From Candidatus Dojkabacteria bacterium (GTDB lineage Bacteria; Patescibacteriota; Dojkabacteria; SC72): 64,000 nt of DNA. Position numbers and translations under genes: made by a program. This document shows, piece by piece, positions 1,747-63,081 of this stretch; the stretch's first letter is position 1; each line of letters begins with the position of its first letter. Location of the stretch: assembly GCA_012513575.1 (NCBI GenBank), contig JAAZBX010000007.1, positions 27,931 to 91,930 on the forward strand, written 5' to 3'. Below the pieces are notes generated by a model. That model was not told the DNA's origin, ran no database searches, and was given only the letters and a program-made list of their open reading frames with translations.

Positions 1747-1799
1747 TGGAGGGAACAATTAAGAAATAAGCATAAGGCTTAATTAGATTGTTCCCTCCA
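1747..1799. terminator. 13-bp hairpin between convergent genes (3' end of locus A)
   Basis: TGGAGGGAACAAT (1747-1759) / ATTGTTCCCTCCA (1787-1799); no clear U-tract. Confidence 0.6.
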
Positions 1800-1813
1800 T
1801 TGGGTTCTACCGG

Positions 1814-2170
1814 TTACATATATGAGTCTGTCAAAAACAAAATCAAAAGAATAAGAGGAAGAAACTTTAGTAAGGACAGAGCCAAATTAATTAGCCCCAG
1901 GCCAAATTTACCCTTTTCCACTTTTCCAAGCGAAAAATTACTTACTTCAAGAATTATCGCTATGATAAAAGCAAATGTTGCTCCTCTTAGAAACAAACCA
2001 AAAGGAAAAGATCCTTGGCCTCTGTTAAGGGTATACACGAGAAAAGTACTCACATATATTCCTATTTGGACCAAATTGACCCAAAGTTTCCCTTGGTTTT
2101 TCCCAATCTGGTAAGCCTCGATTATTACTTCGAGTACCATTAGGTATACAAAAACAATATCCCAGTTCAT
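1814..2170 (-). CDS. Orphan small multi-pass membrane protein (locus A gene 2)
   Basis: About 4 hydrophobic segments; SD AAGGAG 5 nt before ATG. Confidence 0.75.
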   Translation of the reverse strand: MNWDIVFVYLMVLEVIIEAYQIGKNQGKLWVNLVQIGIYVSTFLVYTLNRGQGSFPFGLFLRGATFAFIIAIILEVSNFSLGKVEKGKFGLGLINLALSLLKFLPLILLILFLTDSYM

Positions 2171-2179
2171 TTTTCTCCT

Positions 2180-2368
2180 TTATATCTCAACAAAGAATGG
2201 AATGGCTATCATTACAGCCCCAACTAAAATAAGTATTGTCCCGAAAAAAGAATTCGTGACTTCCTGACCATTGGAAATCAATTTCTTTCGGTTTAAAGTT
2301 TTCGACCAAGTCAGTATCAGCGAACCAAGCAAAAAAATACAAAATCCAACTGGAATTATTTTTTCCAT
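2180..2368 (-). CDS. Orphan 62-aa two-TM protein (locus A gene 1)
   Basis: Two hydrophobic segments; SD AAAGGAG 5 nt before ATG. Confidence 0.7.
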   Translation of the reverse strand: MEKIIPVGFCIFLLGSLILTWSKTLNRKKLISNGQEVTNSFFGTILILVGAVMIAIPFFVEI

Positions 2369-2471
2369 CGTTTCTCCTTTGATTATTTTCTATTTTTTAG
2401 TAAAACCCAATATACCCTCAACACTTGTTAAGAAAATATTGGGCTTCACTAATAAAAAATAGGGTAGAACC

Positions 2472-2541
2472 TTTTTAAAGAGCAGTTGATACCATAAAAG
2501 GTACCTACTTACATTATACTATAGGTTGCATCTTTTCTCAA
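2472..2541 (-). promoter_or_regulatory. sigma70 promoter, small hairpin and boxA-like site (locus A)
   Basis: TTGAGA(2541-2536)-17 bp-TATAAT(2518-2513); TACC-TTTTAT-GGTA hairpin; CTGCTCTTTAAAAA (2485-2472). Confidence 0.8.
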
Positions 2542-2551
2542 TAGAGGGGGT

Positions 2552-2602
2552 AGAAAAGAGAGTCTTCTTACGAAATAAAATCGTATAGAGATGAAGACTC
2601 TC
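2552..2602 (-). terminator. Intrinsic terminator of locus B
   Basis: GAGAGTCTTC/GAAGACTCTC 10-bp stem with inner TACGA/TCGTA, followed by TTTTCT on the minus strand. Confidence 0.7.
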
Positions 2603-2632
2603 CTTAATCTGTTCTTTACGGTCTAATGGTTA

Positions 2633-3007
2633 TTAGAATTCACAATCCTCGTCGAGATCTTCATCTTCAAAAAGATCTTCTTCATCAAATTCCCTATCTT
2701 CGAGAATTTCTTCTGAATCGTTTTCGACATCATAACAAACTGAGAAATTTGATTCTAAACAACTGATAATGGTTTCAAAATCAAGATAGTTCCCTTTATA
2801 AAGGAAGTCAACACAACCATCTGGGTCGACATTTACAAAAAGACTGAAGCTCGAATCACCTTCTTTTGCTTCATTAACTTTTTGTGTTAATGCCTCCTCA
2901 AGCCATTCGTGGTCGTGGAGGGAAACTTGAGCATAGAATGCTGTGTAACCCTTCTTTCTTAACTCTTTGACCGCACGTTCGTCCAGTAACGCAATTGCCA
3001 AAAGCAT
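2633..3007 (-). CDS. Orphan acidic protein with D/E-rich C-terminal tail (locus B)
   Basis: ATG 3007 preceded by AAAGGAG; tail EEILEDREFDEEDLFEDEDLDEDCEF. Confidence 0.7.
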   Translation of the reverse strand: MLLAIALLDERAVKELRKKGYTAFYAQVSLHDHEWLEEALTQKVNEAKEGDSSFSLFVNVDPDGCVDFLYKGNYLDFETIISCLESNFSVCYDVENDSEEILEDREFDEEDLFEDEDLDEDCEF

Positions 3008-3029
3008 GCTTTCTCCTTTTTTTTCTAAT

Positions 3030-3064
3030 ACCGTAAAGAACAAGAACAGACCAGTATTCTAACA
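3030..3064 (-). promoter_or_regulatory. Extended -10 promoter and boxA-like site (locus B)
   Basis: TGtTAGAAT (3064-3056) then TTGTTCTTTACGGT (3043-3030). Confidence 0.55.
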
Positions 3065-3108
3065 CAAAAAGAGCTCTCTTTAAAGACATATTAATGATAT
3101 AATGGGGA

Positions 3109-4320
3109 ATGAACCCACATGAACCTCTCGCTTCAAAATATCGACCTAGGTCTTTAGATGATTTTGTAGGTCAGGAACATTTAGTTGGAGAGAAGGGACC
3201 AATAAGAAAATTTATTGAATCTGGAAAAATCCCCTCAATGATTTTCTGGGGACCTCCTGGTACAGGCAAAACTACACTCGCATACATTCTTTCCTTGAAC
3301 CTTTACTACGATTTTCACAAAATGCAGGCAGTAAATAGTGGGAAAGATGCTTTGAGAAAGGTTATCAAAGTTGCAATGGCAAACCAGCAATATGGCAAAA
3401 AAACCATTCTTTTTCTAGACGAAATACATAGATGGAACAAAGCTCAACAAGATACACTTCTTCCGTATGTTGAAAAAGGAATAATTACATTAATTGGTGC
3501 AACAACAGAGAATCCATCTTTTACAGTAATATCAGCTCTTCTTTCAAGAACCAAGGTATTTGTATTTAAGCAACAGACAGAAGAAGATATTGTAAAACTT
3601 CTTACAAAGATATCAAATAAAGAATACCCGGACATAAAAATATCTAAAAAGGTTCTTCAACAAATGGCAAGTCTTTCGAATGGAGATATTCGCTCAGGAC
3701 TTAACATTCTTGAAATGAGCACAACATTGGCAAATTCTGAAATAAAAAATAGTGAGAAAGCTGAAGTAAAAGAGGAAACGTTAATTGAAACTGTTCAAAA
3801 ACCGGTATATTACGATAAAACCGGAGAAGAGCACTACAACATCATCTCAGCTATCCACAAATCTATGAGATCCTCAAATCCTGATGCGGCCTGCTACTGG
3901 GTAGGAAGAATGTTGGCAGGAGGAGAAGACCCTCTGTATATTGCAAGAAGGATGTTAAGATTTGCAAGTGAAGATATTGGGAATGCAGATCCTAGCGCTT
4001 TAATACTTGCAAACAGTGTATATGAGGCTTGTCAAAAGATTGGTATGCCTGAGTGTGAGATATTTCTAATGCAGTTGGCAATATATCTAGCAAATGCTCC
4101 AAAGGACAACACGGCATATCTCGTTGAAGGACAAGTAAAACAGGACATTGAAGAATACGGCAACTTACCTGTACCCTTAAATATTCGAAATGCAGAAACT
4201 AAACTGATGAAAGAAATAGGATATGGGAAAGGATATGAGTATGACCATGAGCTTCCAAACAAGAAATCAGACCAACAGTGTATGCCAGATAAATTAAAAA
4301 AAAGAAAATATATTCATTAA
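3109..4320 (+). CDS. rarA: Replication-associated recombination protein A (MgsA/RarA AAA+ ATPase)
   Basis: PLASKYRP, GPPGTGKT, DEIHRWNKAQQD, GATTENPSF, ASEDIG. Confidence 0.95.
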   Translation: MNPHEPLASKYRPRSLDDFVGQEHLVGEKGPIRKFIESGKIPSMIFWGPPGTGKTTLAYILSLNLYYDFHKMQAVNSGKDALRKVIKVAMANQQYGKKTILFLDEIHRWNKAQQDTLLPYVEKGIITLIGATTENPSFTVISALLSRTKVFVFKQQTEEDIVKLLTKISNKEYPDIKISKKVLQQMASLSNGDIRSGLNILEMSTTLANSEIKNSEKAEVKEETLIETVQKPVYYDKTGEEHYNIISAIHKSMRSSNPDAACYWVGRMLAGGEDPLYIARRMLRFASEDIGNADPSALILANSVYEACQKIGMPECEIFLMQLAIYLANAPKDNTAYLVEGQVKQDIEEYGNLPVPLNIRNAETKLMKEIGYGKGYEYDHELPNKKSDQQCMPDKLKKRKYIH

Positions 4321-4370
4321 ATTTAGAATCTCTTGTGGAAAGTTAAGAAGAATGAATATATAATTAGAAG

Positions 4371-5597
4371 ATGGAAATAAAAAAAGATTTAGAAATAATT
4401 GAAAGAATACTCAACAAAGGAGTAGAGCAGATTTTGCCTTCAAAAGACGCACTAAAGGAAAAACTCCTATCTGGGGAAAGGTTAACCATCTATCAAGGGT
4501 TTGACCCAACTGCACCATCGCTTCATATTGGGCACACCGTGGGCATGAGAAAACTAGAAGACTTTAGGAAATTGGGACATAAGGTTATATTTCTCATAGG
4601 AGATTTTACTGCAAGAATAGGTGACCCCTCTGATAAAAAAGAGGCAAGAGACTCCGCGAGAAAAGTATTGACTAAAGAACAGGTCGAATCAAATTTAAAA
4701 AGATATATTGATCAGGCATCTCACATTATCGATATCAAAAACGAGGAAAACCCAGTAGAAATTAAATATAATAGTGAATGGCACGAGAAATTATCCTTCC
4801 CTGACATAATAAACCTTGCCTCAGAATTTACTGTTCAGCAAATGATTAAGAGGAGTATGTATCAAGAAAGACTTAAGGAGGACAGGCCTATTTATTTAAA
4901 TGAATTTCTATATCCAATAATGCAAGGATATGATTCCGTTGTTATGGATGTAGATATCGAAGTCGGAGGAAACGATCAATTGTTCAATATGCTTGCTGGA
5001 AGAGATATGGTCCTGAACCATCTTAAAAAAGAAAAAATCGTTTTGGCTGGGAAATTGCTTGAAACAGCGGATGGAAATAAAATGGGCAAATCAGAAGGAA
5101 ATATGGTAAGACTAGATGATTCCCCAGAGGATATCTATGGGAAAATAATGTCCTTTGAGGACAATCAAATTCTTACATCTTTTGAAATTTTGACAAATGC
5201 CTCTATGGATGAAATCAATCAATACAAAAAAAGAATAGAAAATGGGGAAAACCCAATGACCCTAAAAAAAGAATTAGCCTTTAAAATTACTTCAGAAATC
5301 AAGTCGGAAGAAGATGCAAAAAAAGCAGAACTGTTTTTTGAGGCTATATTTCAAAAAAAGAACATAGATACGGAAATCCCCACAATTAAAATTCAAAAGG
5401 ATTCCCTCTCCCTTGTGGACCTAATTTACGAATGTAATTTTGCTAGAAGTAAAGGAGACGCAAGAAGATTAATAGAACAAGGTGCTGTACATATTAATGG
5501 GGAAAAATGTTCGGTTTTTAACCAAAATATCGATTTAAAAAACTCCCAAACAATTCTTAAAGTTGGAAGACAGATAGCCAAGATAGAAATTCAATAA
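4371..5597 (+). CDS. tyrS: Tyrosine--tRNA ligase
   Basis: GFDPTAPSLHIGH, GGNDQ, KMGKS, C-terminal S4 domain. Confidence 0.97.
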   Translation: MEIKKDLEIIERILNKGVEQILPSKDALKEKLLSGERLTIYQGFDPTAPSLHIGHTVGMRKLEDFRKLGHKVIFLIGDFTARIGDPSDKKEARDSARKVLTKEQVESNLKRYIDQASHIIDIKNEENPVEIKYNSEWHEKLSFPDIINLASEFTVQQMIKRSMYQERLKEDRPIYLNEFLYPIMQGYDSVVMDVDIEVGGNDQLFNMLAGRDMVLNHLKKEKIVLAGKLLETADGNKMGKSEGNMVRLDDSPEDIYGKIMSFEDNQILTSFEILTNASMDEINQYKKRIENGENPMTLKKELAFKITSEIKSEEDAKKAELFFEAIFQKKNIDTEIPTIKIQKDSLSLVDLIYECNFARSKGDARRLIEQGAVHINGEKCSVFNQNIDLKNSQTILKVGRQIAKIEIQ

Positions 5598-5600
5598 TAA

Positions 5601-7064
5601 ATGGAAATACAAACACCAACAGGTGTACTAAAAAATAGGATTTACTCCCTTGCTCCTTTGAATTTTACAAAGGACTTAAAAGAAGCTATTTCATATGTCG
5701 AAAAGAAATACGAAGGAAAGACAAGATTCAATGGCGTCCCAATGATTAATCATGTTCTTGAAATCGCAATCTCTTTACTTGAAAAAGGTCTGGATTTAAA
5801 CACCTCCATTGCGACTCTTTTACATGAAATTGAACTAAATGGATTAATCGAGGAAGAGATTCGAAACCTTTTTTCTGAAGATGTAATGGAGATACTTAAT
5901 GGAATCAAAAAAATTAAAAGAGGTACAGATAGTGTCGACACAAATCCAGAACTTATTATTAAATATGTTTTAAATGTATCTGAAGATTTACGACCAGTAT
6001 ATTTAAAAATTTTTGATACTTTGCATGACATTCGCTCTTTTGATGAAATCCCCGAAGATCAGAAAAAAAACAAACTTTTTAAAGCATTAAATATCTATGG
6101 AATATTAGCAGAATATCTCTATTTAGAAGATTTAAAGAAGGAGCTTGAAGAAAAAGCCTTTTCATACTACCTCCCAATTGAGTATAGAAGTATCTCAAAC
6201 AAAATGGATTCGTTAGGGATTTCACAAGAGCTACTGGATAAATATAAAAAAGAAATACTGCTAAGAGTAAAAGAATCTGGGATTAAAGCACGAATAGAAC
6301 AAAGAATAAAAAGTAAGTACAGTATTTACAAGAAATTAAAGAAATATGAAAAAGAGTGGATCGACCCTAATATAAGTAGGCTGGATGATTTAATAGCTTT
6401 GAGGATAATTACTCCTAATCCAAATTCCTGTTATGAAATACTCGAGAAATTAATGGACAATGGGGAGATTGTAGAAGAAAGATTTGATGACTACATTTCT
6501 AATCCAAAACCAAATGGATACAAAGCGATACAATTTCCAATTCGTTTCCCAACAATCTCAGATATGAATATTGAACTTCAGATATTAACTGAGGATATGT
6601 ACAAAGAGAACACCTTCGGAAAAGCTTCTCACATAGCATACAAAGCGAGCCAGTTAAGATATGCAAAACCAACAAACAAATTCGATTGGGTCAAAAAGAT
6701 TCAAGATGAAATAGATAGAAGTAAAATCGAAAGTAAGAAATCGAAATCGTTCCCAATAAGATGTAAGATTTTTGACGATGAAGTCTTTGCATTTACTCCT
6801 AGGGGAAAAATAATTGCTCTAGACAATGGAGATACTGTTTTGGATTTTGCTTTTAGGCTTCACACAGATATTGGGAATAAAGCCGAGAGTGCGAGAGTAA
6901 ATGGATTTCCTGCGAAACTTGCTCAGCAATTAATAACAGGAGATACAGTAGAAATAAAAGTAGATAAAAACAAGTCACATCAAAAAGACATTACTTTGGA
7001 ATACGCAAATTCAAGGAGTACAAAAAATAAAATTAGGAAAAATATCAAACAGGGGGTTAAATAA
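5601..7064 (+). CDS. RelA/SpoT homolog (degenerate HD, synthetase, TGS), C-terminally short
   Basis: RIKSKYSIYKK, DLIALRII, DYISNPKPNGY, FTPRG...TVLDFAFRLHTDIG (TGS); no ZFD/ACT. Confidence 0.85.
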   Translation: MEIQTPTGVLKNRIYSLAPLNFTKDLKEAISYVEKKYEGKTRFNGVPMINHVLEIAISLLEKGLDLNTSIATLLHEIELNGLIEEEIRNLFSEDVMEILNGIKKIKRGTDSVDTNPELIIKYVLNVSEDLRPVYLKIFDTLHDIRSFDEIPEDQKKNKLFKALNIYGILAEYLYLEDLKKELEEKAFSYYLPIEYRSISNKMDSLGISQELLDKYKKEILLRVKESGIKARIEQRIKSKYSIYKKLKKYEKEWIDPNISRLDDLIALRIITPNPNSCYEILEKLMDNGEIVEERFDDYISNPKPNGYKAIQFPIRFPTISDMNIELQILTEDMYKENTFGKASHIAYKASQLRYAKPTNKFDWVKKIQDEIDRSKIESKKSKSFPIRCKIFDDEVFAFTPRGKIIALDNGDTVLDFAFRLHTDIGNKAESARVNGFPAKLAQQLITGDTVEIKVDKNKSHQKDITLEYANSRSTKNKIRKNIKQGVK

Positions 7065-7091
7065 AAAATCAAAAAGATATACAATATAGAG

Positions 7092-7202
7092 ATGAAAAAG
7101 AAAACTAAAGCTAACGTAACAAAAATTATTAACATAATCATGGCAGTCGTTCTACTAGCAAGTATTGTAGTCCCAATGATTATTGTTTTAACTTCTCTCT
7201 AA
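7092..7202 (+). CDS. 36-aa single-TM peptide
   Basis: MKKKTKANVTKIINIIMAVVLLASIVVPMIIVLTSL; TACAAT 6 nt upstream; stop 2 nt before recG. Confidence 0.6.
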   Translation: MKKKTKANVTKIINIIMAVVLLASIVVPMIIVLTSL

Positions 7203-7204
7203 TA

Positions 7205-9196
7205 ATGTTTAATAAAGATATAGATATTTGCCAATTAAAAGGAGTTGGTACTAAGTCTGAGTATTTCTACAGAAAATTGGGTATAAATACAATCAGAAAT
7301 CTATTAAGCCATATCCCTTTTAGATATCAAGACTCTTCAAATATTATCTCTATAAATGTTTTTAAACAATTAAAAGAAGGTACTTTCCTAGGAGAGATTG
7401 AAGAAGTTAAAACAACTTATTTCAGAAAGAAAATTACGACAGTAAAAGTAAAAGACGACTCTGATAGTATTAGATTAGTGTTTTTCAACCAAGCGTATCT
7501 TCAGAAAACATTTAAAAAAAATGATGTCTACATTTTTGATGCAAAAATTACCGAGAAAAACGGAAGAAAAAATATTTACAATCCAAAATACGAGAAATTT
7601 AAGTTAGACAAAAAAAACCAATTTCATGTGGGGAAAATTGTTGGAGTATACCCTGAGACCAAAGGTCTTTCTTCTGCCATCTTAAGAAGAAGAATCTTTC
7701 AATTAAGAGATGATATCTCCAATATTTTCGAAGATCCACTACAAGGTTACAATCTCCCTTTATTAAGCCTTCCAAAGTCTATTGAGAAGATTCATTTCCC
7801 TGAAAATATTAACGACACCGAAGAAGCAAGAAAAAGACTTGCCTTTGATGAAATGTTAAAAGTTGCAATTAGTATTGAGAAAGAACATTTAAATAGAAAA
7901 AAGCAAAAGGCTATTCAAATACCTCTAGACTCAATTCTTATTAACAAATTTATTAAATCCCTTCCATACAAATTAACAAATGATCAGGTTAAAGCAATGG
8001 AGGAGATTTTGGAAGATTGCACACAAACACAGCCAATGAACAGGCTCCTAAACGGAGATGTGGGAAGTGGAAAAACAGTTGTCGCGGCTTCTGTAATTCT
8101 AAATTGTATAAATAGAGGTTTCTCAGCAATAGTACTTGCACCAACAACTGTTTTGGCGAAACAACACTTTGAAACCTTTAAAAATCTTTTTAAGAATTTT
8201 GATATAAATATTGAGCTTTGTATCTCTACAGAAAAAAGTATTTCCGATTCAAACAACAAATTAATAATTGGCACTCATGCTATTCTGTACAACCAGATCC
8301 TCCCAAAGGATTTAAACTTAGTAATAATTGACGAACAGCACAGATTTGGTGTTGAACAAAGACAGTATTTTAAACAAAAGAAAGTTGTGTCTCCGCATTA
8401 CTTAACAATGACAGCCACTCCCATTCCTAGAAGTTTGACCGAAATTTTTTTCGGTGGGCTTGATGTGTCAGAAATAAGAGAGAAGCCAACTAATAGAATT
8501 GAAGTTAAAACTTACTACACACCTTCCAAGAAAAGACTAGAGTGCTTTCAATGGGTCAAAGAAAAAATTATTTCTGGAGAAAGAAAAGATCAGGCATTTT
8601 TCATTTACCCTCTAATAGAAGAAACCGAAAAATCTACTAGAAAGTCTATTTTAAATGAATTTGAAAGTTTGACTAATATTTTTGACGGATTAAATGTTCA
8701 ATATCTGCATGGGAAATTGAAAGAGGAAGAAAAAAGTAGATTACTTAATGATTTTAAAGAGAAAAAAATTGATGTTCTAATATCTACGACTGTAATTGAA
8801 GTTGGAATTGACATCCCAGATGCAACAATTATGGTAATAGAAGATGCTGAGAGATTTGGGCTTGCACAACTTCATCAGCTAAGAGGAAGAGTGGGTCGAA
8901 GCGATAAGGAATCTTACTGCTTTGTTATACCAGGCAATACCGTTGAGAAGGGTTCCCCTGCTGAAGAAAGATTACTGTATTTCGCTAAACACAGTTCTGG
9001 TTTTGAAGTAGCAGAATTTGATTTAAAAAGGAGAGGACCGGGAGAAGTATACGGAACAAGACAGTCAGGAATTCCAAATTTTAAAGTTGCAAGTATTTAT
9101 GATACAGACTTACTAAAAGAGGCACGAATATTTGCTAAAAAAATCCTAAAGGAAGATAATAATCTTCAATATATTTTAGATAATCTTTTCTCATAA
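7205..9196 (+). CDS. recG: ATP-dependent DNA helicase RecG
   Basis: GDVGSGKT, DEQHRFG, MTATPIPR, QLHQLRGRVGR. Confidence 0.97.
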   Translation: MFNKDIDICQLKGVGTKSEYFYRKLGINTIRNLLSHIPFRYQDSSNIISINVFKQLKEGTFLGEIEEVKTTYFRKKITTVKVKDDSDSIRLVFFNQAYLQKTFKKNDVYIFDAKITEKNGRKNIYNPKYEKFKLDKKNQFHVGKIVGVYPETKGLSSAILRRRIFQLRDDISNIFEDPLQGYNLPLLSLPKSIEKIHFPENINDTEEARKRLAFDEMLKVAISIEKEHLNRKKQKAIQIPLDSILINKFIKSLPYKLTNDQVKAMEEILEDCTQTQPMNRLLNGDVGSGKTVVAASVILNCINRGFSAIVLAPTTVLAKQHFETFKNLFKNFDINIELCISTEKSISDSNNKLIIGTHAILYNQILPKDLNLVIIDEQHRFGVEQRQYFKQKKVVSPHYLTMTATPIPRSLTEIFFGGLDVSEIREKPTNRIEVKTYYTPSKKRLECFQWVKEKIISGERKDQAFFIYPLIEETEKSTRKSILNEFESLTNIFDGLNVQYLHGKLKEEEKSRLLNDFKEKKIDVLISTTVIEVGIDIPDATIMVIEDAERFGLAQLHQLRGRVGRSDKESYCFVIPGNTVEKGSPAEERLLYFAKHSSGFEVAEFDLKRRGPGEVYGTRQSGIPNFKVASIYDTDLLKEARIFAKKILKEDNNLQYILDNLFS

Positions 9197-9197
9197 A

Positions 9198-9656
9198 ATG
9201 GAAATCCATTTGGTCTTGGACAATATTCGCTCAGTTTTTAACGTAGGAAGTATATTTCGTTCTGCAGATGGGGCAGGTAGTGTAAAAAAAATTTACCTTT
9301 GTGGGATGACATCTGATATCAATAATCCAAAGCTTGAGAAAACTGCACTTGGAGCAATTGAAATGGTTCCATCTGAACATTACGAGAGTACCCAAGATGC
9401 TCTTGAAGAGATAAGAGCAAATAATATTCCAATATATTCAGTAGAATTAACTGAGGATGCAGTAAATTTCCAAACAGTTAAATATCCTTTAAAAATTGCA
9501 TTGATATTTGGACATGAGAAAATGGGTGTTGATGAGAACATTTTAAATACTTCTGATAAAAAAATATTTGTTCCTATGAGAGGAAAAAAAGAATCCTTAA
9601 ATGTTGCAAATTGTGCAACAACTGTTCTGTATGAGATCACTAGAGAACAAAAATAA
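9198..9656 (+). CDS. SpoU/TrmH-family RNA methyltransferase
   Basis: NIRSVFNVGSIFRS, FGHEKMG, SLNVA SPOUT motifs. Confidence 0.9.
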   Translation: MEIHLVLDNIRSVFNVGSIFRSADGAGSVKKIYLCGMTSDINNPKLEKTALGAIEMVPSEHYESTQDALEEIRANNIPIYSVELTEDAVNFQTVKYPLKIALIFGHEKMGVDENILNTSDKKIFVPMRGKKESLNVANCATTVLYEITREQK

Positions 9657-9702
9657 GCCTTTAATAGCTTTATTTTTAAACATTAAAACGATATAATCCC
9701 TT

Positions 9703-28543: not shown

Positions 28544-29482
28544 TTACTGTAATCTATTCTTTTTGTAAATAACGATTCCAGAACTTGCAAGGAAAGCTAT
28601 CAAAGCAAGAATGCCAATAATTCCCATTATCTGTCCATCTTTAAGAATGGAAAGGGCTAATTGCAACTCACCTGCAGCAACTGGCAAATCAGAATCAATA
28701 ACGGCATTTCCATTTACAGAGCTATCCTTCGAATAAACAACAGAGACTTTTTCTTCGACTTCTTTACTATTTCCAGCCTCATCTTTAAGGGCAACTGCGA
28801 ATACGTTTGAACCCTCTTCCCTTAAAGAAATATCCTTTAAAACAAATTTCCCATCGTTTCCTACCTCTGCCTCATAAATATCCGTACCTCTTTTGACTAC
28901 AACCTTACTCCCTGGCTCAGCTTCCCCTGATAATGCGAATGTCTCCGTCCCAACTTCTTTTGAATAATTTATCTTTGACAACTCAGGGGCTGTTCTATCA
29001 ACAGATACAATAATTGGATCTGATTTTGGAGTTACTATTTTTTTTAGAAAACCTTTTATTGCTGAGACAGATACTATATATTTACCTTCATCTTCAATTT
29101 TCTGAATGAATTCAAACTTCCCATCTTTACCAATTTTTGCTGTTCCTACAAGTTCGTTGTCAATATATACTTGAGCCTTTTTAAAACCCTCTGCAATTCC
29201 TTTTACAACAATATTCTCACCATTAACAGCAGTCACTGTGTCTGCAATGGAAGGGGAGGATAGGGACTCATCTAGTTGAGGATTCTTGTTATTTTTAAGA
29301 TAGGAAAAAATTCCATAACCGATAAGAAGCAGACCAAACACAATAAAAAGTGTGCCGATAAGTCTCGAGAGAGAACTTTCTCTCTTTTCTCTAATCTCAA
29401 CCTTAGACACCATACTATCCTTGGAAGAATTTGACACTTTTTGATTATTTTTTTTGGCAGAATTAATTTTTTTCTTTGCCAC
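28544..29482 (-). CDS. Surface protein with Ig-like domains and C-terminal LPxxxG-TM-basic tail
   Basis: N-terminal TM; VDRTAP, DEAGN Ig-like signatures; DLPVAAG, TM, KKNR. Confidence 0.65.
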   Translation of the reverse strand: MAKKKINSAKKNNQKVSNSSKDSMVSKVEIREKRESSLSRLIGTLFIVFGLLLIGYGIFSYLKNNKNPQLDESLSSPSIADTVTAVNGENIVVKGIAEGFKKAQVYIDNELVGTAKIGKDGKFEFIQKIEDEGKYIVSVSAIKGFLKKIVTPKSDPIIVSVDRTAPELSKINYSKEVGTETFALSGEAEPGSKVVVKRGTDIYEAEVGNDGKFVLKDISLREEGSNVFAVALKDEAGNSKEVEEKVSVVYSKDSSVNGNAVIDSDLPVAAGELQLALSILKDGQIMGIIGILALIAFLASSGIVIYKKNRLQ

Positions 29483-37462: not shown

Positions 37463-37915
37463 ATGAAGAGATCAACTGATCCAAGACATTTAGCAAGAAT
37501 CCTTGCACTTCAAGGACTTTTCTCAAAATACTTTTTGCAAAAAGAAATTCATATGGAGATGATTCCCATTAAGGAACTTTTGTCCATTGATGAATTTGAA
37601 GACTATGATAAGGACTTATTTGAAAAAATTACTGAAGGGGTTGTAAATAATATCGAACAGATAGATAAATTGATTGAGAAATACGCGCCCCAGTGGCCAA
37701 TTCAACAAATGAAGTTAGTTGATTTACAAATCCTAAGAATTGCTATTCTTGAAGGCTTTATCTCAAAAATTACTCCTCCTAAAGTTTCAATAGATGAGGC
37801 AATTGAAATCGCAAAAGATTTTGGTGGGGAGAGTAGTGGGAAATTTGTAAATGGGGTTCTTGGCGCAATATACGAAGAAATTAAATCTGAAGAAGAAAAA
37901 GATGGAGAAAATTAA
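37463..37915 (+). CDS. nusB: Transcription antitermination factor NusB
   Basis: RHLARILALQ, ILRIA, IDEAIEIAK, FVNGVL. Confidence 0.94.
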   Translation: MKRSTDPRHLARILALQGLFSKYFLQKEIHMEMIPIKELLSIDEFEDYDKDLFEKITEGVVNNIEQIDKLIEKYAPQWPIQQMKLVDLQILRIAILEGFISKITPPKVSIDEAIEIAKDFGGESSGKFVNGVLGAIYEEIKSEEEKDGEN

Positions 37916-38594
37916 CGAAATAGAAGAAAAAATTGGAGTAAAGTTTAAAAATCACTTACTTCTCGAAACAGCTTTTACACATAGGTCATATCTTAATGAA
38001 AATAGAGGAAAGAATTTGGAAAATAATGAGAGGTTAGAATTTTTAGGAGATGCAGTACTCGAATTAATTGTGTCAGCAAACCTTTATCATAATTACACCG
38101 ACAAAGCCGAGGGCGAGCTTACAAGTATTAGAGCTGCAATAGTAAGAACAGAGAGCTTAGCAAAAGAGACTGAAAGGTTAAATCTCGGAATGTATCTTAG
38201 GATGTCAAAAGGAGAGAAAGATTCTGGAGGAGAGGAGAAACCATATTTACTAGCCAACTTATATGAGGCACTTCTTGGAGCAATCTATTTAGATGCTGGA
38301 TATGAGGAATGTTTATATTTTGTGAAGAGAACTCTTTTCAAAAAAATTAAGAGGATTATCAGTCAGAAGCTTTTTATTGACCCTAAAACAAAGGTACAAG
38401 AGATAATGCAAAGAAAACACCGTATAACACCCACATATGAGATCCTAAAAGAAGAGGGGCCCGATCATAAGAAATCTTTTACGGTAGCTCTCTTTATGGG
38501 AGACAGGAAAGTTGTTGAAGGAGAAGGTGCAAGCAAACAAAAAGCTGAGGAAAATGCAGCAACGAATGCAATAGATATTTTAGAAAAAGATTAA
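37902..38594 (+). CDS. rnc: Ribonuclease III
   Basis: AFTHRS, NERLEFLGDAVL, dsRBD (DPKT...EGPDH...SKQKAE); start set to ATG 37902. Confidence 0.96.
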   Translation: MEKINEIEEKIGVKFKNHLLLETAFTHRSYLNENRGKNLENNERLEFLGDAVLELIVSANLYHNYTDKAEGELTSIRAAIVRTESLAKETERLNLGMYLRMSKGEKDSGGEEKPYLLANLYEALLGAIYLDAGYEECLYFVKRTLFKKIKRIISQKLFIDPKTKVQEIMQRKHRITPTYEILKEEGPDHKKSFTVALFMGDRKVVEGEGASKQKAEENAATNAIDILEKD

Positions 38595-45170: not shown

Positions 45171-45968
45171 TTACATACAGGCAGGACTATTCACATCAAG
45201 GCATTCTGTGTCTTTGTCAGAAACACAACTTGGAGAACATGGGTCATCAGGGCTTCCAGGTATTACTGGGGATGGAATATCTTTAACAATTGGTTCCAAA
45301 GTCTTATCTGTTCCATCATCCGTATCACAATATGAGGGTCTACCATCAATACAGTTTGTATTCTTTGTAGGATCACATGGAGCACAAGGGTCATAGGTTG
45401 GTTCCTCTTTTATTGGTGTCCACGTCCTTCCGTCCCAATTTGACCTTGTTTTAGCTTTCTTTATCAATTCATAACTTGCCGGGTCTTCCACAGGTAGATA
45501 CTTCTCCTTTGTTATTGTTCCAAAACCCTCTCCCATGGTTGGGTCTCCAAATCCATTTCCTACACAAATTATCCCTTTTTGTAATTCATCATCAATCCCT
45601 CCTAAAGTAACACAAATTAATACGGCTTGTTTAGATGTATTAGTAGAGTAGTAGTAGGTAGCTTCAGAACCACCATTAAAAAGACCTAAATCTAAATAGT
45701 TTTTTAGACTTCCTCCCTCTGCAGTCATCTGTTCAATACTAATTGGTGTCCCATCAGGTTGACTCCCATCTGGGAATACCCCATTATCAGTATAGAAGGA
45801 TTGAGCAGCCTGATAGAGTTGTGTGGCACCATTTTTATGTGCTATCTCATTTGATTTGTCTATTGAGAATCTTCCTGCAGCTACTCCTACGACAATTAGA
45901 ATTACCAAGATCCCCATTACAATTAGCATTTCTACTAACGTGAATGCTTTATATGATTTTTTCTTCAT
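45171..45968 (-). CDS. Type IV pilin with Cys-rich C-terminal extension
   Basis: AFTLVEML; paralog of 46078-46653; extra tail with two 4-Cys units. Confidence 0.88.
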   Translation of the reverse strand: MKKKSYKAFTLVEMLIVMGILVILIVVGVAAGRFSIDKSNEIAHKNGATQLYQAAQSFYTDNGVFPDGSQPDGTPISIEQMTAEGGSLKNYLDLGLFNGGSEATYYYSTNTSKQAVLICVTLGGIDDELQKGIICVGNGFGDPTMGEGFGTITKEKYLPVEDPASYELIKKAKTRSNWDGRTWTPIKEEPTYDPCAPCDPTKNTNCIDGRPSYCDTDDGTDKTLEPIVKDIPSPVIPGSPDDPCSPSCVSDKDTECLDVNSPACM

Positions 45969-57491: not shown

Positions 57492-57559
57492 TCGCCATAT
57501 CTCTCTTGTAATATTCAAAGTCCTGTGATTATGAGAGAGGAGACATTTCTTAAATGTGC

Positions 57560-57628
57560 TTGAATTCACTTCCGACCTATAGTATAATATAAGTATATAC
57601 CTTTATGGTATAAACTGCTCATTAAAAA
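57560..57628 (+). promoter_or_regulatory. sigma70 promoter, small hairpin and boxA-like site (locus C)
   Basis: TTGAAT(57560)-17 bp-TATAAT(57583); TATACC-TTTAT-GGTATA; CTGCTCATTAAAAA (57615-57628). Confidence 0.8.
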
Positions 57629-57630
57629 CT

Positions 57631-57807
57631 TCCAATTAATACTTTGTGATTTATATCCTGTATTAATCTGGATAAATAGCATGTGATGAGAATATATTCT
57701 TCCTTATCCTTTTTGGGATGCATATTGTACCTAAGTATATTGGGTATATTATGCATCTCAAATGAGGTGATAAAAAATTAAACAAGAAATATTCGAGGAG
57801 GAATATT
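57631..57807 (+). ncRNA. Structured 5' leader shared with locus D
   Basis: Hairpin 57631-57672, arm TAGCATGTGATGAG 57677-57690, long hairpin 57715-57759; covaries with 62164-62307. Confidence 0.7.
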
Positions 57808-58887
57808 GTGAAAAAGCTAGTAGTTTTTATTCTTATGTTAAGTATTGTATTAGGAGCATGTAATCCAAACCCAACAAATGTACCGACTATCGAACCAACA
57901 GCAACTCCAAGTCCAACGCCATTTGTATGGTCGTGCGAAAATGATCCCGTGAGGGGTGTATCGCTAGACTTAGAGGGAATGTACAAGACAAGTATAGAAA
58001 ATAGGTATGTTCCCGGGTGTACTCAGGGGTTTTTCATAGGTCTCTCAGGAGAGGCGTACCAAATCAATTTCCTTTTCAAGGACTATCAAGCTATTAGTCT
58101 TGACAATTCTTTTATCGCCAATTTAGAGACGACTGTTGAGTGGGAAATATATGCTTATGATTATTTTGTTCCACATCATTCTCAAAAAAAAGGTGATATT
58201 ATCTCCTTTGTAATGCCAGCTCCAGGGTATTTTCTTCTTGATCGTAACGGCTACCTTTATTTTGGAGTATTCGATGATCCTAATTTTGAAGATTATGTTA
58301 GGGTATTTGTGGATGGCGAGGAATGGTTTGCTTCTTCTACTACTGTTAGAATCTTGTTATCCCCAAATGGAGAATACATTGTACCGGAAGGAGCCACAGT
58401 AAGAATTGAGTCAATCAAGGATGCAGTTGATTATCAAGGTTTAGAGAATTACGGAACTCTCGGTTGGATTGAAGCAATTGTTTTTGAACGAACGTACCCC
58501 GGGGACACAGCAAAGACCAATCACCCAATTCTGAATGAAGAAACCCAAATTGATTTCGGACCGTATGGGATTTATAAACCCTCCTTTAACGAAGAAAGAA
58601 ACAAGTGGGGCCTTTCCCTTTCAGAAGAATCCATGGTAAAGCCTGGGATTTGGGAGGAAGGATATCTGAGAGACTTCATTTGGCACGGTGGTGCGTATGT
58701 ATTTTATATGCCCGCAGATGGGGTTGTATTTTGGAATAGAAGAACTTCTTCAATTTTGTTTGAAGGGGACGAAACAGATTCAGACACTGACAAAATAGAT
58801 GCACACCTCTATCGAGAGGGTGATTTAGTAGTTGTCTATTTTGAGAGGGCTTCTCTGGATGATTTTTACATTGAGTTTTTGAATTAA
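57808..58887 (+). CDS. Orphan lipoprotein (locus C)
   Basis: GTG start with SD GAGGAGG; lipobox LGAC; Pro/Thr linker; C-terminal domain similar to the locus D protein. Confidence 0.85.
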   Translation: MKKLVVFILMLSIVLGACNPNPTNVPTIEPTATPSPTPFVWSCENDPVRGVSLDLEGMYKTSIENRYVPGCTQGFFIGLSGEAYQINFLFKDYQAISLDNSFIANLETTVEWEIYAYDYFVPHHSQKKGDIISFVMPAPGYFLLDRNGYLYFGVFDDPNFEDYVRVFVDGEEWFASSTTVRILLSPNGEYIVPEGATVRIESIKDAVDYQGLENYGTLGWIEAIVFERTYPGDTAKTNHPILNEETQIDFGPYGIYKPSFNEERNKWGLSLSEESMVKPGIWEEGYLRDFIWHGGAYVFYMPADGVVFWNRRTSSILFEGDETDSDTDKIDAHLYREGDLVVVYFERASLDDFYIEFLN

Positions 58888-59047
58888 TGTCTCCCCAACT
58901 CTAGCTAGGTTTAGAACTGAAATATATCTTTAATATGATTAAACATATTAAAACAAAAATTTCATTTCACACAACCTCATCACATGCTAGAGTTCTATTT
59001 AGATATTTGTTCTAAAATACTATTTTGTATTTTCTGATAAATACCTA

Positions 59048-59272
59048 TCATTGAACTCTTACAATATTAAAATCCCTGTAATACTCATCACCTGATAACG
59101 CTATGATATTTTTTGACAACTCATCATAACTCATCCAGCTATCATCAATTCTTTTTTTCTTTAAACTTTTTTTAAGAATATTCTCAAATTTGCTTAATTT
59201 CTCATTCAAGTGATAAATTTCAGTATTAACAATTTGGGAAATCATTAGATAATCCTCATTTGATAATCTCAT
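59048..59272 (-). CDS. Small hypothetical protein
   Basis: 74-aa ORF with ATG after an AT-rich region; no recognisable motif. Confidence 0.45.
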   Translation of the reverse strand: MRLSNEDYLMISQIVNTEIYHLNEKLSKFENILKKSLKKKRIDDSWMSYDELSKNIIALSGDEYYRDFNIVRVQ

Positions 59273-59401
59273 ACTTTTTATTAATAAATTTATTAATTTA
59301 TTCTAACCCACTCCGAAATATACTTCTTCACCTAGAGAAAAATATATTAACCTTGTATAAAATTGCTATTCTCCAAGAACTATATGTTGTAAAATAAGAA
59401 C

Positions 59402-60226
59402 ATGTCAGAATTCTGGGTAAAAATGATTACTTTTCTAATGAGTTTGACCCTATCTGTATCAACATATAGCCCTATGGGGAAATTAGTTAATCCTGATGAG
59501 AAAGGAATACTTTTCAGAGGAGAAGTTAAAGAGAGATTAATCAATGAGAATTCGGGAATTAAAGCTTTAACAACTCCTAATATCGTATCAAACAATACAA
59601 TCATAGGCTCAAAATGGTGGATATATCCTGAAGAAATTAAGCTAACGAAAAGAAGTGGAAATGATTTACTTGTTCTTGTGAATAAAGAGTATCGCTTACC
59701 AGAAACCTTTATCCCTATAGATCTTGTAAAAGCTAGCCAGTCGGGGATTAGAAGAGGAGAGAGCTATTACCTCAGGAGTATCTTAATTAATGACTTAAGA
59801 GACTTAGTAAACCAGGCTTCAAATGATGGCGTTGATTTAAGTATTCGCTCAGGATATAGATCTTATGCCGACCAACTTTATACTTACAATTTCTGGTTAA
59901 AAGCGAATGGAAATATTGAGGACGAAGCCGACAAGGTATCCGCTAGAGCAGGGCATAGCCAACACCAATTAGGCACTGCAATTGATTTTAGTAGCGCAGA
60001 AATCCAGGATGGATTAGGAGGCCAATTTTCAGGAACCCTTGCAGCCAAATGGTTAGAACAAAATGCATGGAAATACGGATTTGTTTTGGCTTTTCCAAAA
60101 GGATATGAAAATACAACTGGCTTTAGTTACGAAAGTTGGCATTACAGATATATTGGTATCGCTAATGCTTTAAATGTGATAAATAGTGGGAAAATATTGG
60201 AAGTATACTTAAGAGAGATTAATTAA
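59402..60226 (+). CDS. VanY/LdcB-like M15B carboxypeptidase
   Basis: LVNK, SGYRS, SQHQLGTAID (SxHxxGxAxD), YESWH. Confidence 0.92.
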   Translation: MSEFWVKMITFLMSLTLSVSTYSPMGKLVNPDEKGILFRGEVKERLINENSGIKALTTPNIVSNNTIIGSKWWIYPEEIKLTKRSGNDLLVLVNKEYRLPETFIPIDLVKASQSGIRRGESYYLRSILINDLRDLVNQASNDGVDLSIRSGYRSYADQLYTYNFWLKANGNIEDEADKVSARAGHSQHQLGTAIDFSSAEIQDGLGGQFSGTLAAKWLEQNAWKYGFVLAFPKGYENTTGFSYESWHYRYIGIANALNVINSGKILEVYLREIN

Positions 60227-60240
60227 CGTATAATAAAAAA

Positions 60241-60873
60241 ATGAAAAGTAATGGACCTCAAAAGATTCAAAATATTTATGTACTAATAGGATTTTTCTTT
60301 CTTTTTCTCTCGCTTATTGCTATTGCCATACCTATTGGGCCATATGTTTGGTATAGAATCAATCCCAATGAGACAGATAAAGATATTGAAAAAATCGTTA
60401 AGGAGATAACAACTGAAAAAATTGAACACAAAACTAAAACCACATCTCAAGTACCTCCACTTGACCCATCACTTCCGGAAACACCTTTTGTAATTATCCC
60501 CAAAATCAATGTTGAATCTCCGATCTCAACAAATAAAGATTTTAATACTGGCCTTGCAAAGGGCTCATGGATTGTGTCAGATTACGGAACTCCTGAGAAA
60601 CCAGAATTGCCAATTATTCTTGCTGCTCATAGATTCGGCTATGCAAATTGGAGTGTAGAGAAAAGAAATAGAATCTCTTTTTACAATCTCCCAGAGACCC
60701 AAGAGGGAGATGATGTTTTTATCTATTGGAATCAAAGAAGATATAACTACAAGATCTACAAGTCAAAAGAGAGTACCTATATTAGCGATTACAGTGCCGA
60801 CCTCATACTATATACATGCAAATTCTTTAATTCTCCGGTTCGTATCTTCCGGTATGCAGAGCTAGTTAAATAA
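60241..60873 (+). CDS. Sortase
   Basis: N-terminal TM; IPKINV, AAHRF, LILYTC, R triad. Confidence 0.88.
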   Translation: MKSNGPQKIQNIYVLIGFFFLFLSLIAIAIPIGPYVWYRINPNETDKDIEKIVKEITTEKIEHKTKTTSQVPPLDPSLPETPFVIIPKINVESPISTNKDFNTGLAKGSWIVSDYGTPEKPELPIILAAHRFGYANWSVEKRNRISFYNLPETQEGDDVFIYWNQRRYNYKIYKSKESTYISDYSADLILYTCKFFNSPVRIFRYAELVK

Positions 60874-60905
60874 GCATTCCTCACACAGAGAGAAGCCCCA
60901 TAGTG

Positions 60906-60934
60906 TTGCCATTTCGGTTATTTCATGCTATAAT
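60906..60934 (+). promoter_or_regulatory. sigma70 promoter of the small exported peptide gene
   Basis: TTGCCA-17 bp-TATAAT with TG extension. Confidence 0.7.
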
Positions 60935-60967
60935 TATCCTGCATTTAAATTAACTAGCCCTTTATAT

Positions 60968-61207
60968 ATGAGGAAGTTATTTTCAGCAACTTTAGCTGCT
61001 ATCTTGATTTCCGCTATAAATGTTTCTTCTGTCCTAGCTAGTGGGAACCCATACGGTCCATATAATCCATATGAACCTCATGAACCACTTCCAACTGGAT
61101 TTGGTGATACAAACACCTTCTATCTAGTAGCATTAGTCGCATTTACTGTCGGAATGATTATCTTAGCAATAGCTAAAGACCTTAAGGGCAAGCAGTCTGC
61201 TGCATAA
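60968..61207 (+). CDS. 79-aa exported peptide with LPTG-TM-basic tail (candidate sortase substrate)
   Basis: Signal peptide ending VLA; SGNPYGPYNPYEPHEPLPTG; TM; KDLKGK. Confidence 0.75.
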   Translation: MRKLFSATLAAILISAINVSSVLASGNPYGPYNPYEPHEPLPTGFGDTNTFYLVALVAFTVGMIILAIAKDLKGKQSAA

Positions 61208-61276
61208 CAGTTGACTGCTCCCTTGGGGAGCAATAAATGCATTTTCTATAAATTTACTTATTTTTATCATTTTAAA

Positions 61277-62050
61277 ATGAAACTATCTTTGGTTATACCA
61301 ACATACAAAAAACAAAGAGATGTTTTGGATCAATTAGAAAGAGTATACGGCTACCTTTCAAGAAAGAATCCTGACTTTGAACTCATCTTCGTTATTGATG
61401 GGTATGTTGATAATACTAAGGATATTTTAGAAAAATATGTTAAGGAGAATAGATTAAAAAAAGTTTCCATCATAGGATATGAAGATAATATGGGTAAGGG
61501 ATATGCTGTTAGATATGGAATGAAAAGAGCTACAGGGGACGTTATTGGCTTTATTGATGCTGATACAGATATTCAAATTAGGACTTTAGGTTATGCTCTA
61601 AAATCTATCAAACATGATTCTGTCATGGCTGTAGTACCTTCTAAATTTCATAAGGATTCAAATGTTGAAATGAAACTTGGTAGAAAGATTCTTTCCTATG
61701 GATTGATGTATACTAATAGGTTTCTTTTAAAGCTACCAAAGAATGTTGACGATGTTGGGTGTGGTCTCAAATTATTTAGAAAAGAATTAATCGAAAGAAT
61801 ACTTCCTTCGTTAAGAGTAAATAATTTTGCGATAGATTCTGAGATATTAAATCTAATTGGTAGAGTAGGTTACTCAGTTTCCGTTATTCCTTTCTACTTA
61901 AACAAGAACAGAAGTGAAAGTACATCTGCGAATATTGGGAAGATTTTAGGCATGGTGAAAGATATATTTGTCCTTTCATTAAGTAATAGATATATTTTCA
62001 AGAACTCATTCTCAAAGCCATCTTACATTGACAATTCTAGCAACCTATAG
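61277..62050 (+). CDS. GT2 glycosyltransferase (DPM/DPG-synthase-like)
   Basis: LSLVIPTY, NMGKGYAVRYG, FIDAD, GLKLF; start set to ATG 61277. Confidence 0.88.
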   Translation: MKLSLVIPTYKKQRDVLDQLERVYGYLSRKNPDFELIFVIDGYVDNTKDILEKYVKENRLKKVSIIGYEDNMGKGYAVRYGMKRATGDVIGFIDADTDIQIRTLGYALKSIKHDSVMAVVPSKFHKDSNVEMKLGRKILSYGLMYTNRFLLKLPKNVDDVGCGLKLFRKELIERILPSLRVNNFAIDSEILNLIGRVGYSVSVIPFYLNKNRSESTSANIGKILGMVKDIFVLSLSNRYIFKNSFSKPSYIDNSSNL

Positions 62051-62089
62051 TATAATACATGTGTTAATTGTTAACCTGCTCTTTATAAA
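62028..62089 (+). promoter_or_regulatory. Consensus sigma70 promoter, small hairpin and boxA-like site (locus D)
   Basis: TTGACA(62028)-17 bp-TATAAT(62051); GTTAA-TTG-TTAAC; CTGCTCTTTATAAA (62076-62089). Confidence 0.85.
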
Positions 62090-62095
62090 TTAATC

Positions 62096-62363
62096 CTTAA
62101 GAATTCATAGTGAAGACCCTTGTCCTATATGAGTTCTTAAGAACTCGAAGATCATTAAAAATTTCTAAGTATATACATTGATTTTATTCGGTATGTATTT
62201 AGATCAAATAGTGTGTGATGTAAGAGAGTAGGGTATTCATTTTACTTCCTACCATCCTTTTGGGATGCATAGTGTATCTAATATTTATTGGATATAGTAT
62301 GCATTCCATTTGGATGCAAAAGCAGAGAGCTTTTTCGAAAATTATCGGCTTAAGGAGGCCAAA
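62096..62363 (+). ncRNA. Structured 5' leader of locus D
   Basis: Hairpins 62097-62141, 62164-62203, 62262-62307; second boxA-like GATCATTAAAAA near 62150; arms 62208-62221 and 62321-62329. Confidence 0.7.
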
Positions 62364-62924
62364 ATGAAAGACAATAAGAAAGATGAAAAGAAACCTAACT
62401 GGAAAGAAAAGATCAAAGAGGTCAATTGGTGGATGGTTTTGGCCATCATTGCGGTCATAGCTTTATTGCTATCGTTCGCCTATCGGGCGCAACAAGCGAA
62501 GCTAGCCGCTCCAGCAGCATCATCACAGTCCTCAGGACAAACAGGCGACCAGACAGGCATCGTTGCTGCGGCTCCCAATTGTCAAGAAATTGGCATAACT
62601 TTCGGCAAAAGCGGTTCATTCCGTTCCGTATGGGACTCGAATATGAAAACATGCGTTCTGGGAATGTGGGAAGAAGCGAGGATTTCGCCCGGAATGTCCT
62701 TGGCGGACTTGAAAATTCAAGGGGACGATTACTCGTTCCTCATGCCGTTCAAGGGATCAATTAACCATTCCGCGGACACCATTTTCGTGAACAATACAAA
62801 ATGTACCCCAGGGAACCCTGTTTCCTGTGATGGGAAAACTTCGTTCGAGAAGAACACCCCAGTACATATTGTTTCCGAACCGGGAAATGATTCCTCAGGC
62901 GTAATGCTTATTCAAAATCCATAA
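62364..62924 (+). CDS. Orphan single-TM surface protein (locus D)
   Basis: SD AAGGAGG then ATG 62364; charged N-terminus, TM, Ala/Ser/Gln linker, 4-Cys domain; visibly more GC-rich than its flanks. Confidence 0.82.
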   Translation: MKDNKKDEKKPNWKEKIKEVNWWMVLAIIAVIALLLSFAYRAQQAKLAAPAASSQSSGQTGDQTGIVAAAPNCQEIGITFGKSGSFRSVWDSNMKTCVLGMWEEARISPGMSLADLKIQGDDYSFLMPFKGSINHSADTIFVNNTKCTPGNPVSCDGKTSFEKNTPVHIVSEPGNDSSGVMLIQNP

Positions 62925-63009
62925 CAAACTCTCTGCTCCTGGGTGGGGGACAATCTTTTCTGCTTAACCGCATTAAAAATCCCCCACCCCACAAACATCA
63001 CACACTATC

Positions 63010-63081
63010 AATCTTCTAAGACTATACTGTCTTACTGATGAGTCCACATATATTTACAAATATATTGAGGACGAAAAGATT
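63010..63081 (+). ncRNA. Type III hammerhead ribozyme
   Basis: AATCTT-C (stem III 5' strand and C17), stem I TAAGAC/GTCTTA, CTGATGA core, stem II GTCC/GGAC, GAA-AAGATT (core and stem III 3' strand). Confidence 0.93.

Follow-up and report, generated by a model that had tools for sequence, protein, structure and literature searches.

In the leaders of bacterial ribosomal RNA (rrn) operons a 5' hairpin and a boxA are found, and an arm adjacent to boxA pairs beyond the body of the RNA to form the 16S or 23S stalk (PMC4807359 and the accessible part of PMC13753749). In E. coli the Nus loop is made by SuhB, and there is precedent for a Nus tether beside the 16S arm (PMC4807359). A boxA in the 5' leader of an mRNA is known from E. 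coli suhB and lambda nutL-N, the translation of which is blocked by the Nus loop (PMC5725501), while end-to-end pairing, sequestration of the Shine-Dalgarno sequence (SD) and processing are features of S. aureus icaR (accessible part of PMC3868564) and of type I toxin mRNAs (accessible part of PMC8594479). Here we describe four gene cassettes, A to D, in a 64,000-nt stretch of Candidatus Dojkabacteria DNA (contig JAAZBX010000007.1, positions 27,931 to 91,930; the whole stretch is hereafter called the window), in which a promoter, a boxA-like motif and a long-range closing stem surround a coding sequence (CDS).

The ingredients are each known singly, and this lineage-wide class of mRNA framed like pre-rRNA belongs to none of the systems tested. 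The cassettes share with the rrn leader the 5' hairpin, the boxA, in variants of the genus's own rrn boxes, and the adjacent arm that pairs beyond the body. In contrast to the rrn stalk, however, the body is an exchangeable CDS with an SD, the stem has half the length, there are about 15 units per genome, and SuhB is mostly missing. Pairing with the 3' end is absent from suhB and nutL-N, and such targets are few per species and mostly Nus or translation genes, whereas the cassettes form a class of accessory genes. boxA is absent from icaR and the type I toxins, which comprise individual genes or short toxin messages accompanied by an antisense RNA; in the cassettes, pairing of the 3' arm usually takes place next to the box and not at the SD. 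Our literature search, which left most subscription papers outside, found no description of this architecture, nor of boxA in mRNAs of Patescibacteria. The main text of bioRxiv 10.64898/2026.10.21.760802 mentions neither boxA nor Dojkabacteria, and its supplements or database may hold such leaders or the ribozyme described below.

An earlier note on this DNA had listed four pairs of arms around the coding sequences, and all four proved to be exact reverse complements. On the minus strand, cassette A has a sigma70 promoter at 2513-2541 (-35 box at 2541-2536, a shared 7-nt motif at 2525-2519 and -10 box at 2518-2513, by sequence reading), a small 5' hairpin, and a boxA at 2473-2484 with one mismatch to the E. 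coli consensus (accessible part of PMC13753749); the 5' arm (2463-2471) adjoins the box, and the 3' arm (1803-1811) lies 2 nt past the stop codon, the pair being supported by complementarity, alignment and folding. In B, likewise on the minus strand, a -10 box at 3056-3061 (sequence reading and promoter scan) precedes a boxA-like motif at 3030-3042 that doubles as the 5' arm, as the box of the rRNA stalk does, and that both by exact complementarity and in the fold pairs with 2610-2622. Cassette C on the plus strand has its sigma70 promoter at 57560-57588, boxA at 57616-57627, and arms at 57677-57690 and 58976-58993 (complementarity and alignment); of the latter, 58976-58989 is the arm proper, and the further 4 nt are predicted to pair on the box. 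Cassette D, also on the plus strand, has a promoter that matches the consensus at 12 of 12 positions (62028-62056), a first boxA at 62077-62088, identified by motif comparison, and arms at 62208-62221 and 62995-63008 (complementarity and alignment), as well as an inner arm (62321-62329) that pairs with 62929-62937, immediately flanking the CDS. The promoter string said to be common to A, C and D also stood: it is a 14-nt string that occurs three times in the assembly, each time in the window.

The source assembly comprises 716 kb in 24 contigs. Nine small contigs with more than 40% GC were excluded from all scans based on open reading frames (ORFs); these contigs (C3, C5, C10, C13, C14, C16, C18, C19 and C23 of G000) have 42-54% GC, compared with about 35% elsewhere, and are probably foreign. 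A ranking of the 366 ORFs that have a gap upstream placed D, C, B and a fifth unit, on contig C22, at the top for perfect complements between leader and trailer (14, 14, 13 and 13 nt); A was missed there, since it carries two ORFs (62 and 118 aa). Transcription units built on crude in-house ORF calls gave a corresponding picture. Seven of 170 units have a -10 box plus boxA motif; their mean z was -2.9 and four of them outscored all 40 foreign trailers, as against a mean z of -0.07 and five such units among the other 163, and at least one of these five turned out to be a cassette with a variant box. Chance does not account for the arm pairs on either count. Relaxed scans raised the number of cassettes in the genome to about 15, two of them weak.

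A wider set of 42 closed cassettes was obtained from 46 fetched regions and the four of this genome, after removal of eight matches, six lacking a qualifying ORF and two in which ORFs were open. Orthologous cassettes are kin and not independent samples, and about ten slots have mutually unrelated arm sequences. With no positional rule imposed, the cognate trailer came ahead of all foreign ones in 20 of the 42, and was surpassed by no more than one in 28. Among 23 units with a short leader, the arm begins 7-15 nt from the start of the box motif and its partner lies between -10 and +18 of the stop codon; scoring with the arm constrained to follow the box and the partner to lie close to the stop gave a cognate median of 26 versus 13, and 17 of the 23 outscored every foreign trailer (one unit with a mis-called end was excluded). 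Full-length folds, in a thermodynamic model without ribosomes, gave pairing probabilities of 0.96-1.0 for the arms. In the stem of C and D, 6 of the 14 positions changed on both sides among 10 distinct rows, and a single A-C break falls within the first 12; in the alignment of the D leader 8 of 63 predicted pairs carry a two-sided change, the consensus fold reaching -58.9 kcal/mol on the sense strand versus -20.3 kcal/mol on the antisense strand. In cassettes of the genus and of other families alike, the arm beside boxA pairs beyond the body of the RNA, as in the pre-rRNA processing stalk; the closing stems measure 8-19 bp (22 bp in L235) versus about 25-30 bp for the 16S stalk. We consider it very probable that this architecture is genuine and under selection at the RNA level.

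The naming of the motif as boxA was borne out as well, as it matches the organism's own rrn boxes and the boxes of tRNA promoters in the class. The boxes of A, C and D differ at one or two positions from the E. coli consensus given in the accessible part of PMC13753749, and that of C differs at one position from the organism's own 16S leader box and matches the 16S leader box of G020. Within the genus the same motif, or one with a single mismatch, recurs at the 16S and 23S stalks and in the rRNA spacer, and a second variant behind the 16S stalk reappears as the second box of D-type and L127-type leaders. In other families the promoter-proximal motif precedes tRNA genes (L184, L187, L189, L190 and L198), where it directly follows the -10 box, and a 23S gene (L199). 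NusA, NusB, NusG, S10, Rho, RNase III, RNase Y and two RNase J-like proteins are encoded in the genome. These comparisons support the view that the cassette motif behaves as boxA, and it may be bound by NusB-S10. As to the broader likeness to an rRNA leader, the geometry of box and then arm holds, but the label boxC does not: in rrn leaders of the genus the box is where the stalk starts, and the GU-rich stretch forms a local fold. A boxC acting as stalk arm was accordingly rejected for the genus, and the GU-rich arm of C and D differs from the rRNA stalk arm of the lineage.

In the leader, 41 of the 42 cassettes carry a predicted hairpin of 24-44 bp. In the window such hairpins lie at 2391-2461 in A (about 31 bp, z -7.3 versus shuffles), at 57706-57768 in C (z -8.2) and at 62253-62316 in D (26 bp, z -9.2), so that the three span z -7 to -9; that of D is conserved with one- and two-sided changes, and that of C is a candidate RNase III site. 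The earlier note gave every unit a strong SD; in predicted folds it is often not free. When leaders were folded by themselves, 36 of 42 cassettes had the SD paired to the leader (P>0.5), a common partner being a CU-rich strand that directly follows the 5' arm; in C the predicted anti-SD strand (57694-57705) forms 12 bp with 57795-57806. In L127, L165 and G017 the closing arm covers the SD itself, and in several short units the SD is open in leader-trailer cofolds. The lambda N leader, too, contains a long structure and, reportedly from work by Wilson in 2002, is linked to RNase III.

Behind the 3' arm of D, at 63009-63082 on the plus strand, lies a type III hammerhead ribozyme. The match to Rfam Hammerhead_3 (RF00008) scores 30.5 bits (E 3.7e-4 in a 1.4-kb search), which is below the gathering score of 48.5, with the conserved core, stems I-III and the cleavage triplet intact. 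Of the 220 genomes searched, 11 had an exact hammerhead pattern, all of them among the 22 of the genus, and the remaining 198 had none. The 11 aligned copies have 99.1% of 231 cells paired, a value reached by 0 of 500 shuffles, and six pairs with two-sided changes, four of them in one sequence; stem I is invariant, partly owing to the search pattern. Self-cleavage is predicted after 63016, which is 8 nt past the 3' arm. An invariant 6-mer in the D leader (62147-62152), which shares positions with a second box resembling that of the rRNA spacer (62149-62160), is complementary to the last 6 nt that the predicted cut would leave; as both the 6-mer and its complement at the ribozyme end are almost invariant, pairing between the two is no more than possible. 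Bacterial hammerheads have been suggested to act in mRNA processing and some lie in 3' untranslated regions (UTRs), while their roles are largely elusive (accessible part of PMC6765202). The copy at D differs from them by its low score and by its fixed position 8 nt behind a long-range stem, and it is kept through replacement of the whole cassette: the G017 slot is occupied by another short cassette, with an arm over the SD, and the ribozyme is retained.

Trailers of the C type end where the ribozyme would start, and C therefore looks like a D-type unit that may have lost its hammerhead. The 3' hairpins that had been assigned to every unit were found in the folds of A (1747-1799), B (2554-2605) and D (62941-62989, within the closed loop), but the end of D is the hammerhead, which had been overlooked. 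A 5' ribozyme in the leaders was ruled out by searches that revealed no sense-strand ribozyme family other than the 3' hammerhead (E<=5 at 16 loci; E<=10 in the D region). In the window no Rfam match reached its gathering score except for one tRNA elsewhere, and the cassette bodies are ORFs with an SD and not stable RNAs.

The cargo consists of orphan proteins of 59-360 aa: small membrane proteins, predicted lipoproteins and one Band 7 protein. Cassette A encodes hydrophobic orphans of 62 aa (ORF1, 2180-2368, SD at 2380-2374) and 118 aa (ORF2, 1814-2170), and B an orphan of 124 aa with an acidic C-terminus (2633-3007), all on the minus strand. The CDS of C (57808-58887, plus strand) specifies a 359-aa predicted lipoprotein, with signal peptide and cysteine recognized by eye, and that of D (62364-62924, plus strand) a 186-aa orphan with an N-terminal membrane helix, a linker and a beta-rich domain in a low-confidence model (predicted local distance difference test score 49). 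None of the five ORFs of A-D matched Pfam, nor did those of other units except for the Band 7 protein, two matches below the cut-off being ignored. Only 11 homologues of the D protein were found, and its AlphaFold model, made without an alignment, was too poor for a structure search; the C protein had no usable match in the Atlas.

A single slot carries unrelated proteins in different species. In the clearest of 20 pairs compared, C of the window and L215 share 97% of the leader, 58% of the CDS (37% of the protein), 100% of the trailer and 99% of the downstream sequence, with edges at the start and stop codons; L215 thus holds an exchanged allele. In G011 two copies with 92% leader identity surround unrelated coding sequences. 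Genes of the ComEC family are present in 18 of 22 genomes of the genus. On these comparisons, recombination in the conserved flanks under balancing selection would explain the exchange without new enzymes.

Of 22 genomes of the genus, 18 had the pattern of -10 box plus boxA and one its reversed control. A looser pattern was found in 94 of 220 genomes of the class (control about 31 of 220) and in 66 of 98 of the family (control 14 of 98). Outside the class it occurred in 26 of 282 genomes versus about 20 for the control, which is near chance; one of four testable loci there had a strong stem, and 12 of 16 lacked a qualifying ATG ORF. In a blind test on other genera and families, 30 loci yielded 13 testable ones, six of which ranked first where about one was expected, and in five loci of three families the arm lay 4-13 nt into or behind the box. 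Five additional loci of the family gave two first and three second ranks. A phage origin was rejected, one strict promoter-box pattern having given no match in viral contigs. A possible case beyond Dojkabacteria is L248 (G398, outside the class), with promoter, box, a 16-bp leader/trailer stem and a 336-aa exported protein.

RNA data were examined as assembled contigs from 4 of 24 listed runs, and such contigs show neither ends, strand nor level. Single contigs cover the CDS of C in three runs (57788-58796, 57800-58905 and 57833-58912), and most of D is covered in two (62430-63013 and 62461-63002); in the fourth run, coverage of the stretch resembles that of DNA. The D contigs, from two studies, end at 63013 and 63002, just before the predicted cut after 63016, which is a weak hint of ribozyme cleavage. 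Contigs over C and D have higher figures than their neighbours in runs X5 and X14, contig depth being unable to rank genes. In X5, 42 unmatched letters precede 57788, and a short motif from this loose end is absent from the genome; in X13 most of the CDS of C is skipped (57947-58876) and 1195 extra letters stand ahead of the D promoter (61933-62046). These differences may stem from other alleles or from an extra cassette.

We tentatively favour, at slightly less than an even chance, the reading that the cassettes are self-contained expression frames for exchangeable accessory genes, with a NusB-S10 tether, a retained stem and gated translation. As the comparisons show, the sigma70 promoter places boxA at the 5' end of the RNA. 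NusB-S10 would then bind the box, stay on RNA polymerase as in the E. coli rrn model and hold the 5' arm at the box end, while ribosomes and Rho would be kept off the growing RNA. Once transcription has passed the 3' arm, located at or beyond the stop codon, the arms, whose helix is backed by covariation, would pair and loop out the CDS. Either a hairpin or, in the case of the D slot, cleavage by the hammerhead would define the 3' end, and the retained stem would shield both ends from RNase J and 3' exonucleases. In units with a long leader the predicted anti-SD strand, stacked on the 24-44-bp hairpin, would hold the SD, so that the finished mRNA would be silent until the hairpin is cut, most likely by RNase III. 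Finally, the CDS would be replaced by homologous recombination in the conserved frame, leading to allele swaps of surface proteins. This proposal would explain why the arm, whatever its sequence, lies at the box end.

Several observations weigh against this reading. A comparison of G-U with A-C combinations did not tell the strands apart: the long-range arms gave three bracketed G-U and four A-C, and the helix edges gave 28 A-C and 9 G-U, which opposes pairing on the sense strand and may be due to A-rich flanks. SuhB was found neither in this genome nor, with two exceptions (one above the cut-off), in the 22 genomes of the genus. The 16S leader box is variable within the genus and located inside the stalk, and so may be kept for pairing alone. 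The counts of anti-SD strands and long hairpins come from cassettes alone, without a background of ordinary genes, and about ten short units have no long hairpin. Moreover, the RNA contigs of C end before both arms in three runs, a misfit with an abundant intact closed form, though contigs cannot show ends.

A simpler account, which we judge unlikely, is one of protection only: boxA would counter Rho-dependent termination on AU-rich foreign genes, and the ends would be shielded by the stem, with neither closure by a tether nor a gate. Fewer steps are needed, Rho and RNase J-like proteins are present, SuhB is missing in 20 of 22 genomes, and the open SD in cofolds of several short units is in line with the absence of a gate. 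On the other hand, this account leaves unexplained the fixed position of the arm at the box end, the CU-rich SD-pairing strand of most long leaders, and the SD-covering arms of L127, L165 and G017.

According to the earlier note, the messages mature like pre-rRNA, with RNase III cutting the closing stem and the product possibly being ligated into a circle; such maturation appears distinctly improbable to us. The box-then-arm geometry is that of the 16S and 23S stalks, RNase III is encoded by a gene (rnc) that adjoins nusB, the C contigs lack both arms in three runs, and the pairing of the 5' and 3' UTRs of icaR is an RNase III substrate (accessible part of PMC3868564). However, the closing stem itself is a doubtful substrate at 8-19 bp versus about 25-30 bp, and in D, where the predicted ribozyme end lies 8 nt past the arm, trimming of the stem by RNase III would make the ribozyme redundant.

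Type I toxin-like control, in which the cargo would be toxic, the closed form a silent store and the active form removed by an antisense RNA, has in our estimate only a small chance of being correct. Sequestration of the SD and long-distance 5'-3' pairing do define such mRNAs (accessible part of PMC8594479), and many cargoes are small and hydrophobic, but cargo of 59-360 aa and transcripts of 500-1450 nt stand against 20-60 aa and 150-400 nt in that source. The cargo also includes lipoproteins and a Band 7 protein, toxin systems of this type do not involve boxA, and no conserved antisense unit was seen, albeit without a systematic search.

A still smaller chance is given to a DNA-level element, in which the arms would be inverted repeats of a mobile or invertible cassette. 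The exchange of coding sequences with sharp edges at start and stop and the two tyrosine recombinases of the genome would suit it, but the arms are internal to promoter and terminator, are specific to each slot with no common sequence across slots, and enclose a CDS in the sense orientation in every case seen. Furthermore, folding of the leaders is much more favourable on the sense strand, a hammerhead and a boxA function at the RNA level, and the strict pattern had no match in viral contigs. The covalent circle by itself hardly deserves belief and was dropped, RtcB, the only ligase looked for, being absent from all 22 genomes of the genus, a reverse transcriptase from this genome, and go-back joints from the contigs of the four RNA runs, which cannot show absence.

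Returning to the tethered and gated expression frame, a bolder version, which we regard as rather doubtful, would hold that Dojkabacteria use the rRNA chaperone pathway as a general mRNA format. Nus factors would join the 5' and 3' ends of each accessory-gene transcript, and the closed, end-protected message would be stored silent until one RNase III cut activates it; the hammerhead would set the 3' end of one class, its product tucked onto the leader, and the frames would serve as homology arms for swaps of surface alleles. If this is true, stored messages could serve, for example, a host-free stage of the symbiont. The cassettes offer dozens of natural, sequence-diverse substrates for the question whether boxA and Nus factors act in antitermination or in delivering RNA ends, in an organism mostly without SuhB. 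They also give a bacterial hammerhead a concrete and testable job, single out those orphan genes of an uncultured symbiont that serve as exchangeable surface cargo, and suggest a portable frame for stable or gated mRNA.

A weak fifth unit lies at 60897-61241 on the plus strand of the window, with a promoter at 60906-60934, an 8-bp stem (60940-60947 with 61234-61241) and a 79-aa ORF at 60968-61207. It carries the same 7-nt motif (60897-60903) as A (2519-2525), C (57576-57582) and D (62044-62050), and about ten other promoters have it as well. In most units this motif lies about 0, 5, 9, 20 or 25 nt upstream of the -10 box, and 34 of its 89 genomic copies fall outside long ORFs; as a guess, it could be the site of a regulator. 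Neighbouring nusB and rnc occupy 37463-38594 on the plus strand, with rnc at 37851-38594, and are followed by rpsP and a gene for a KH-domain protein.

L217 (G000:C8:14215-14640, plus strand) has a promoter and a box, and its 10-bp closing stem encloses about 330 nt in which no ORF of at least 40 aa follows an SD; apart from a neighbouring tRNA there is no Rfam match, and the unit may represent decayed cargo or an unfamiliar RNA. The D slots of G005, G007, G012, G016 and G018 contain tandem promoter-plus-box modules spaced by about 92 nt. At L214, located at a contig end, the last 55 nt duplicate a stretch upstream of the cassette, by tandem duplication or as an assembly artefact. Two further loci on the minus strand of the window were observed: at 28544-29482 a 17-bp AU-rich leader/trailer complement occurs without a box, and at 45171-45968 a gene with a pilin-like N-terminus, as judged by eye, is flanked on either side by near-identical GC-rich hairpins.

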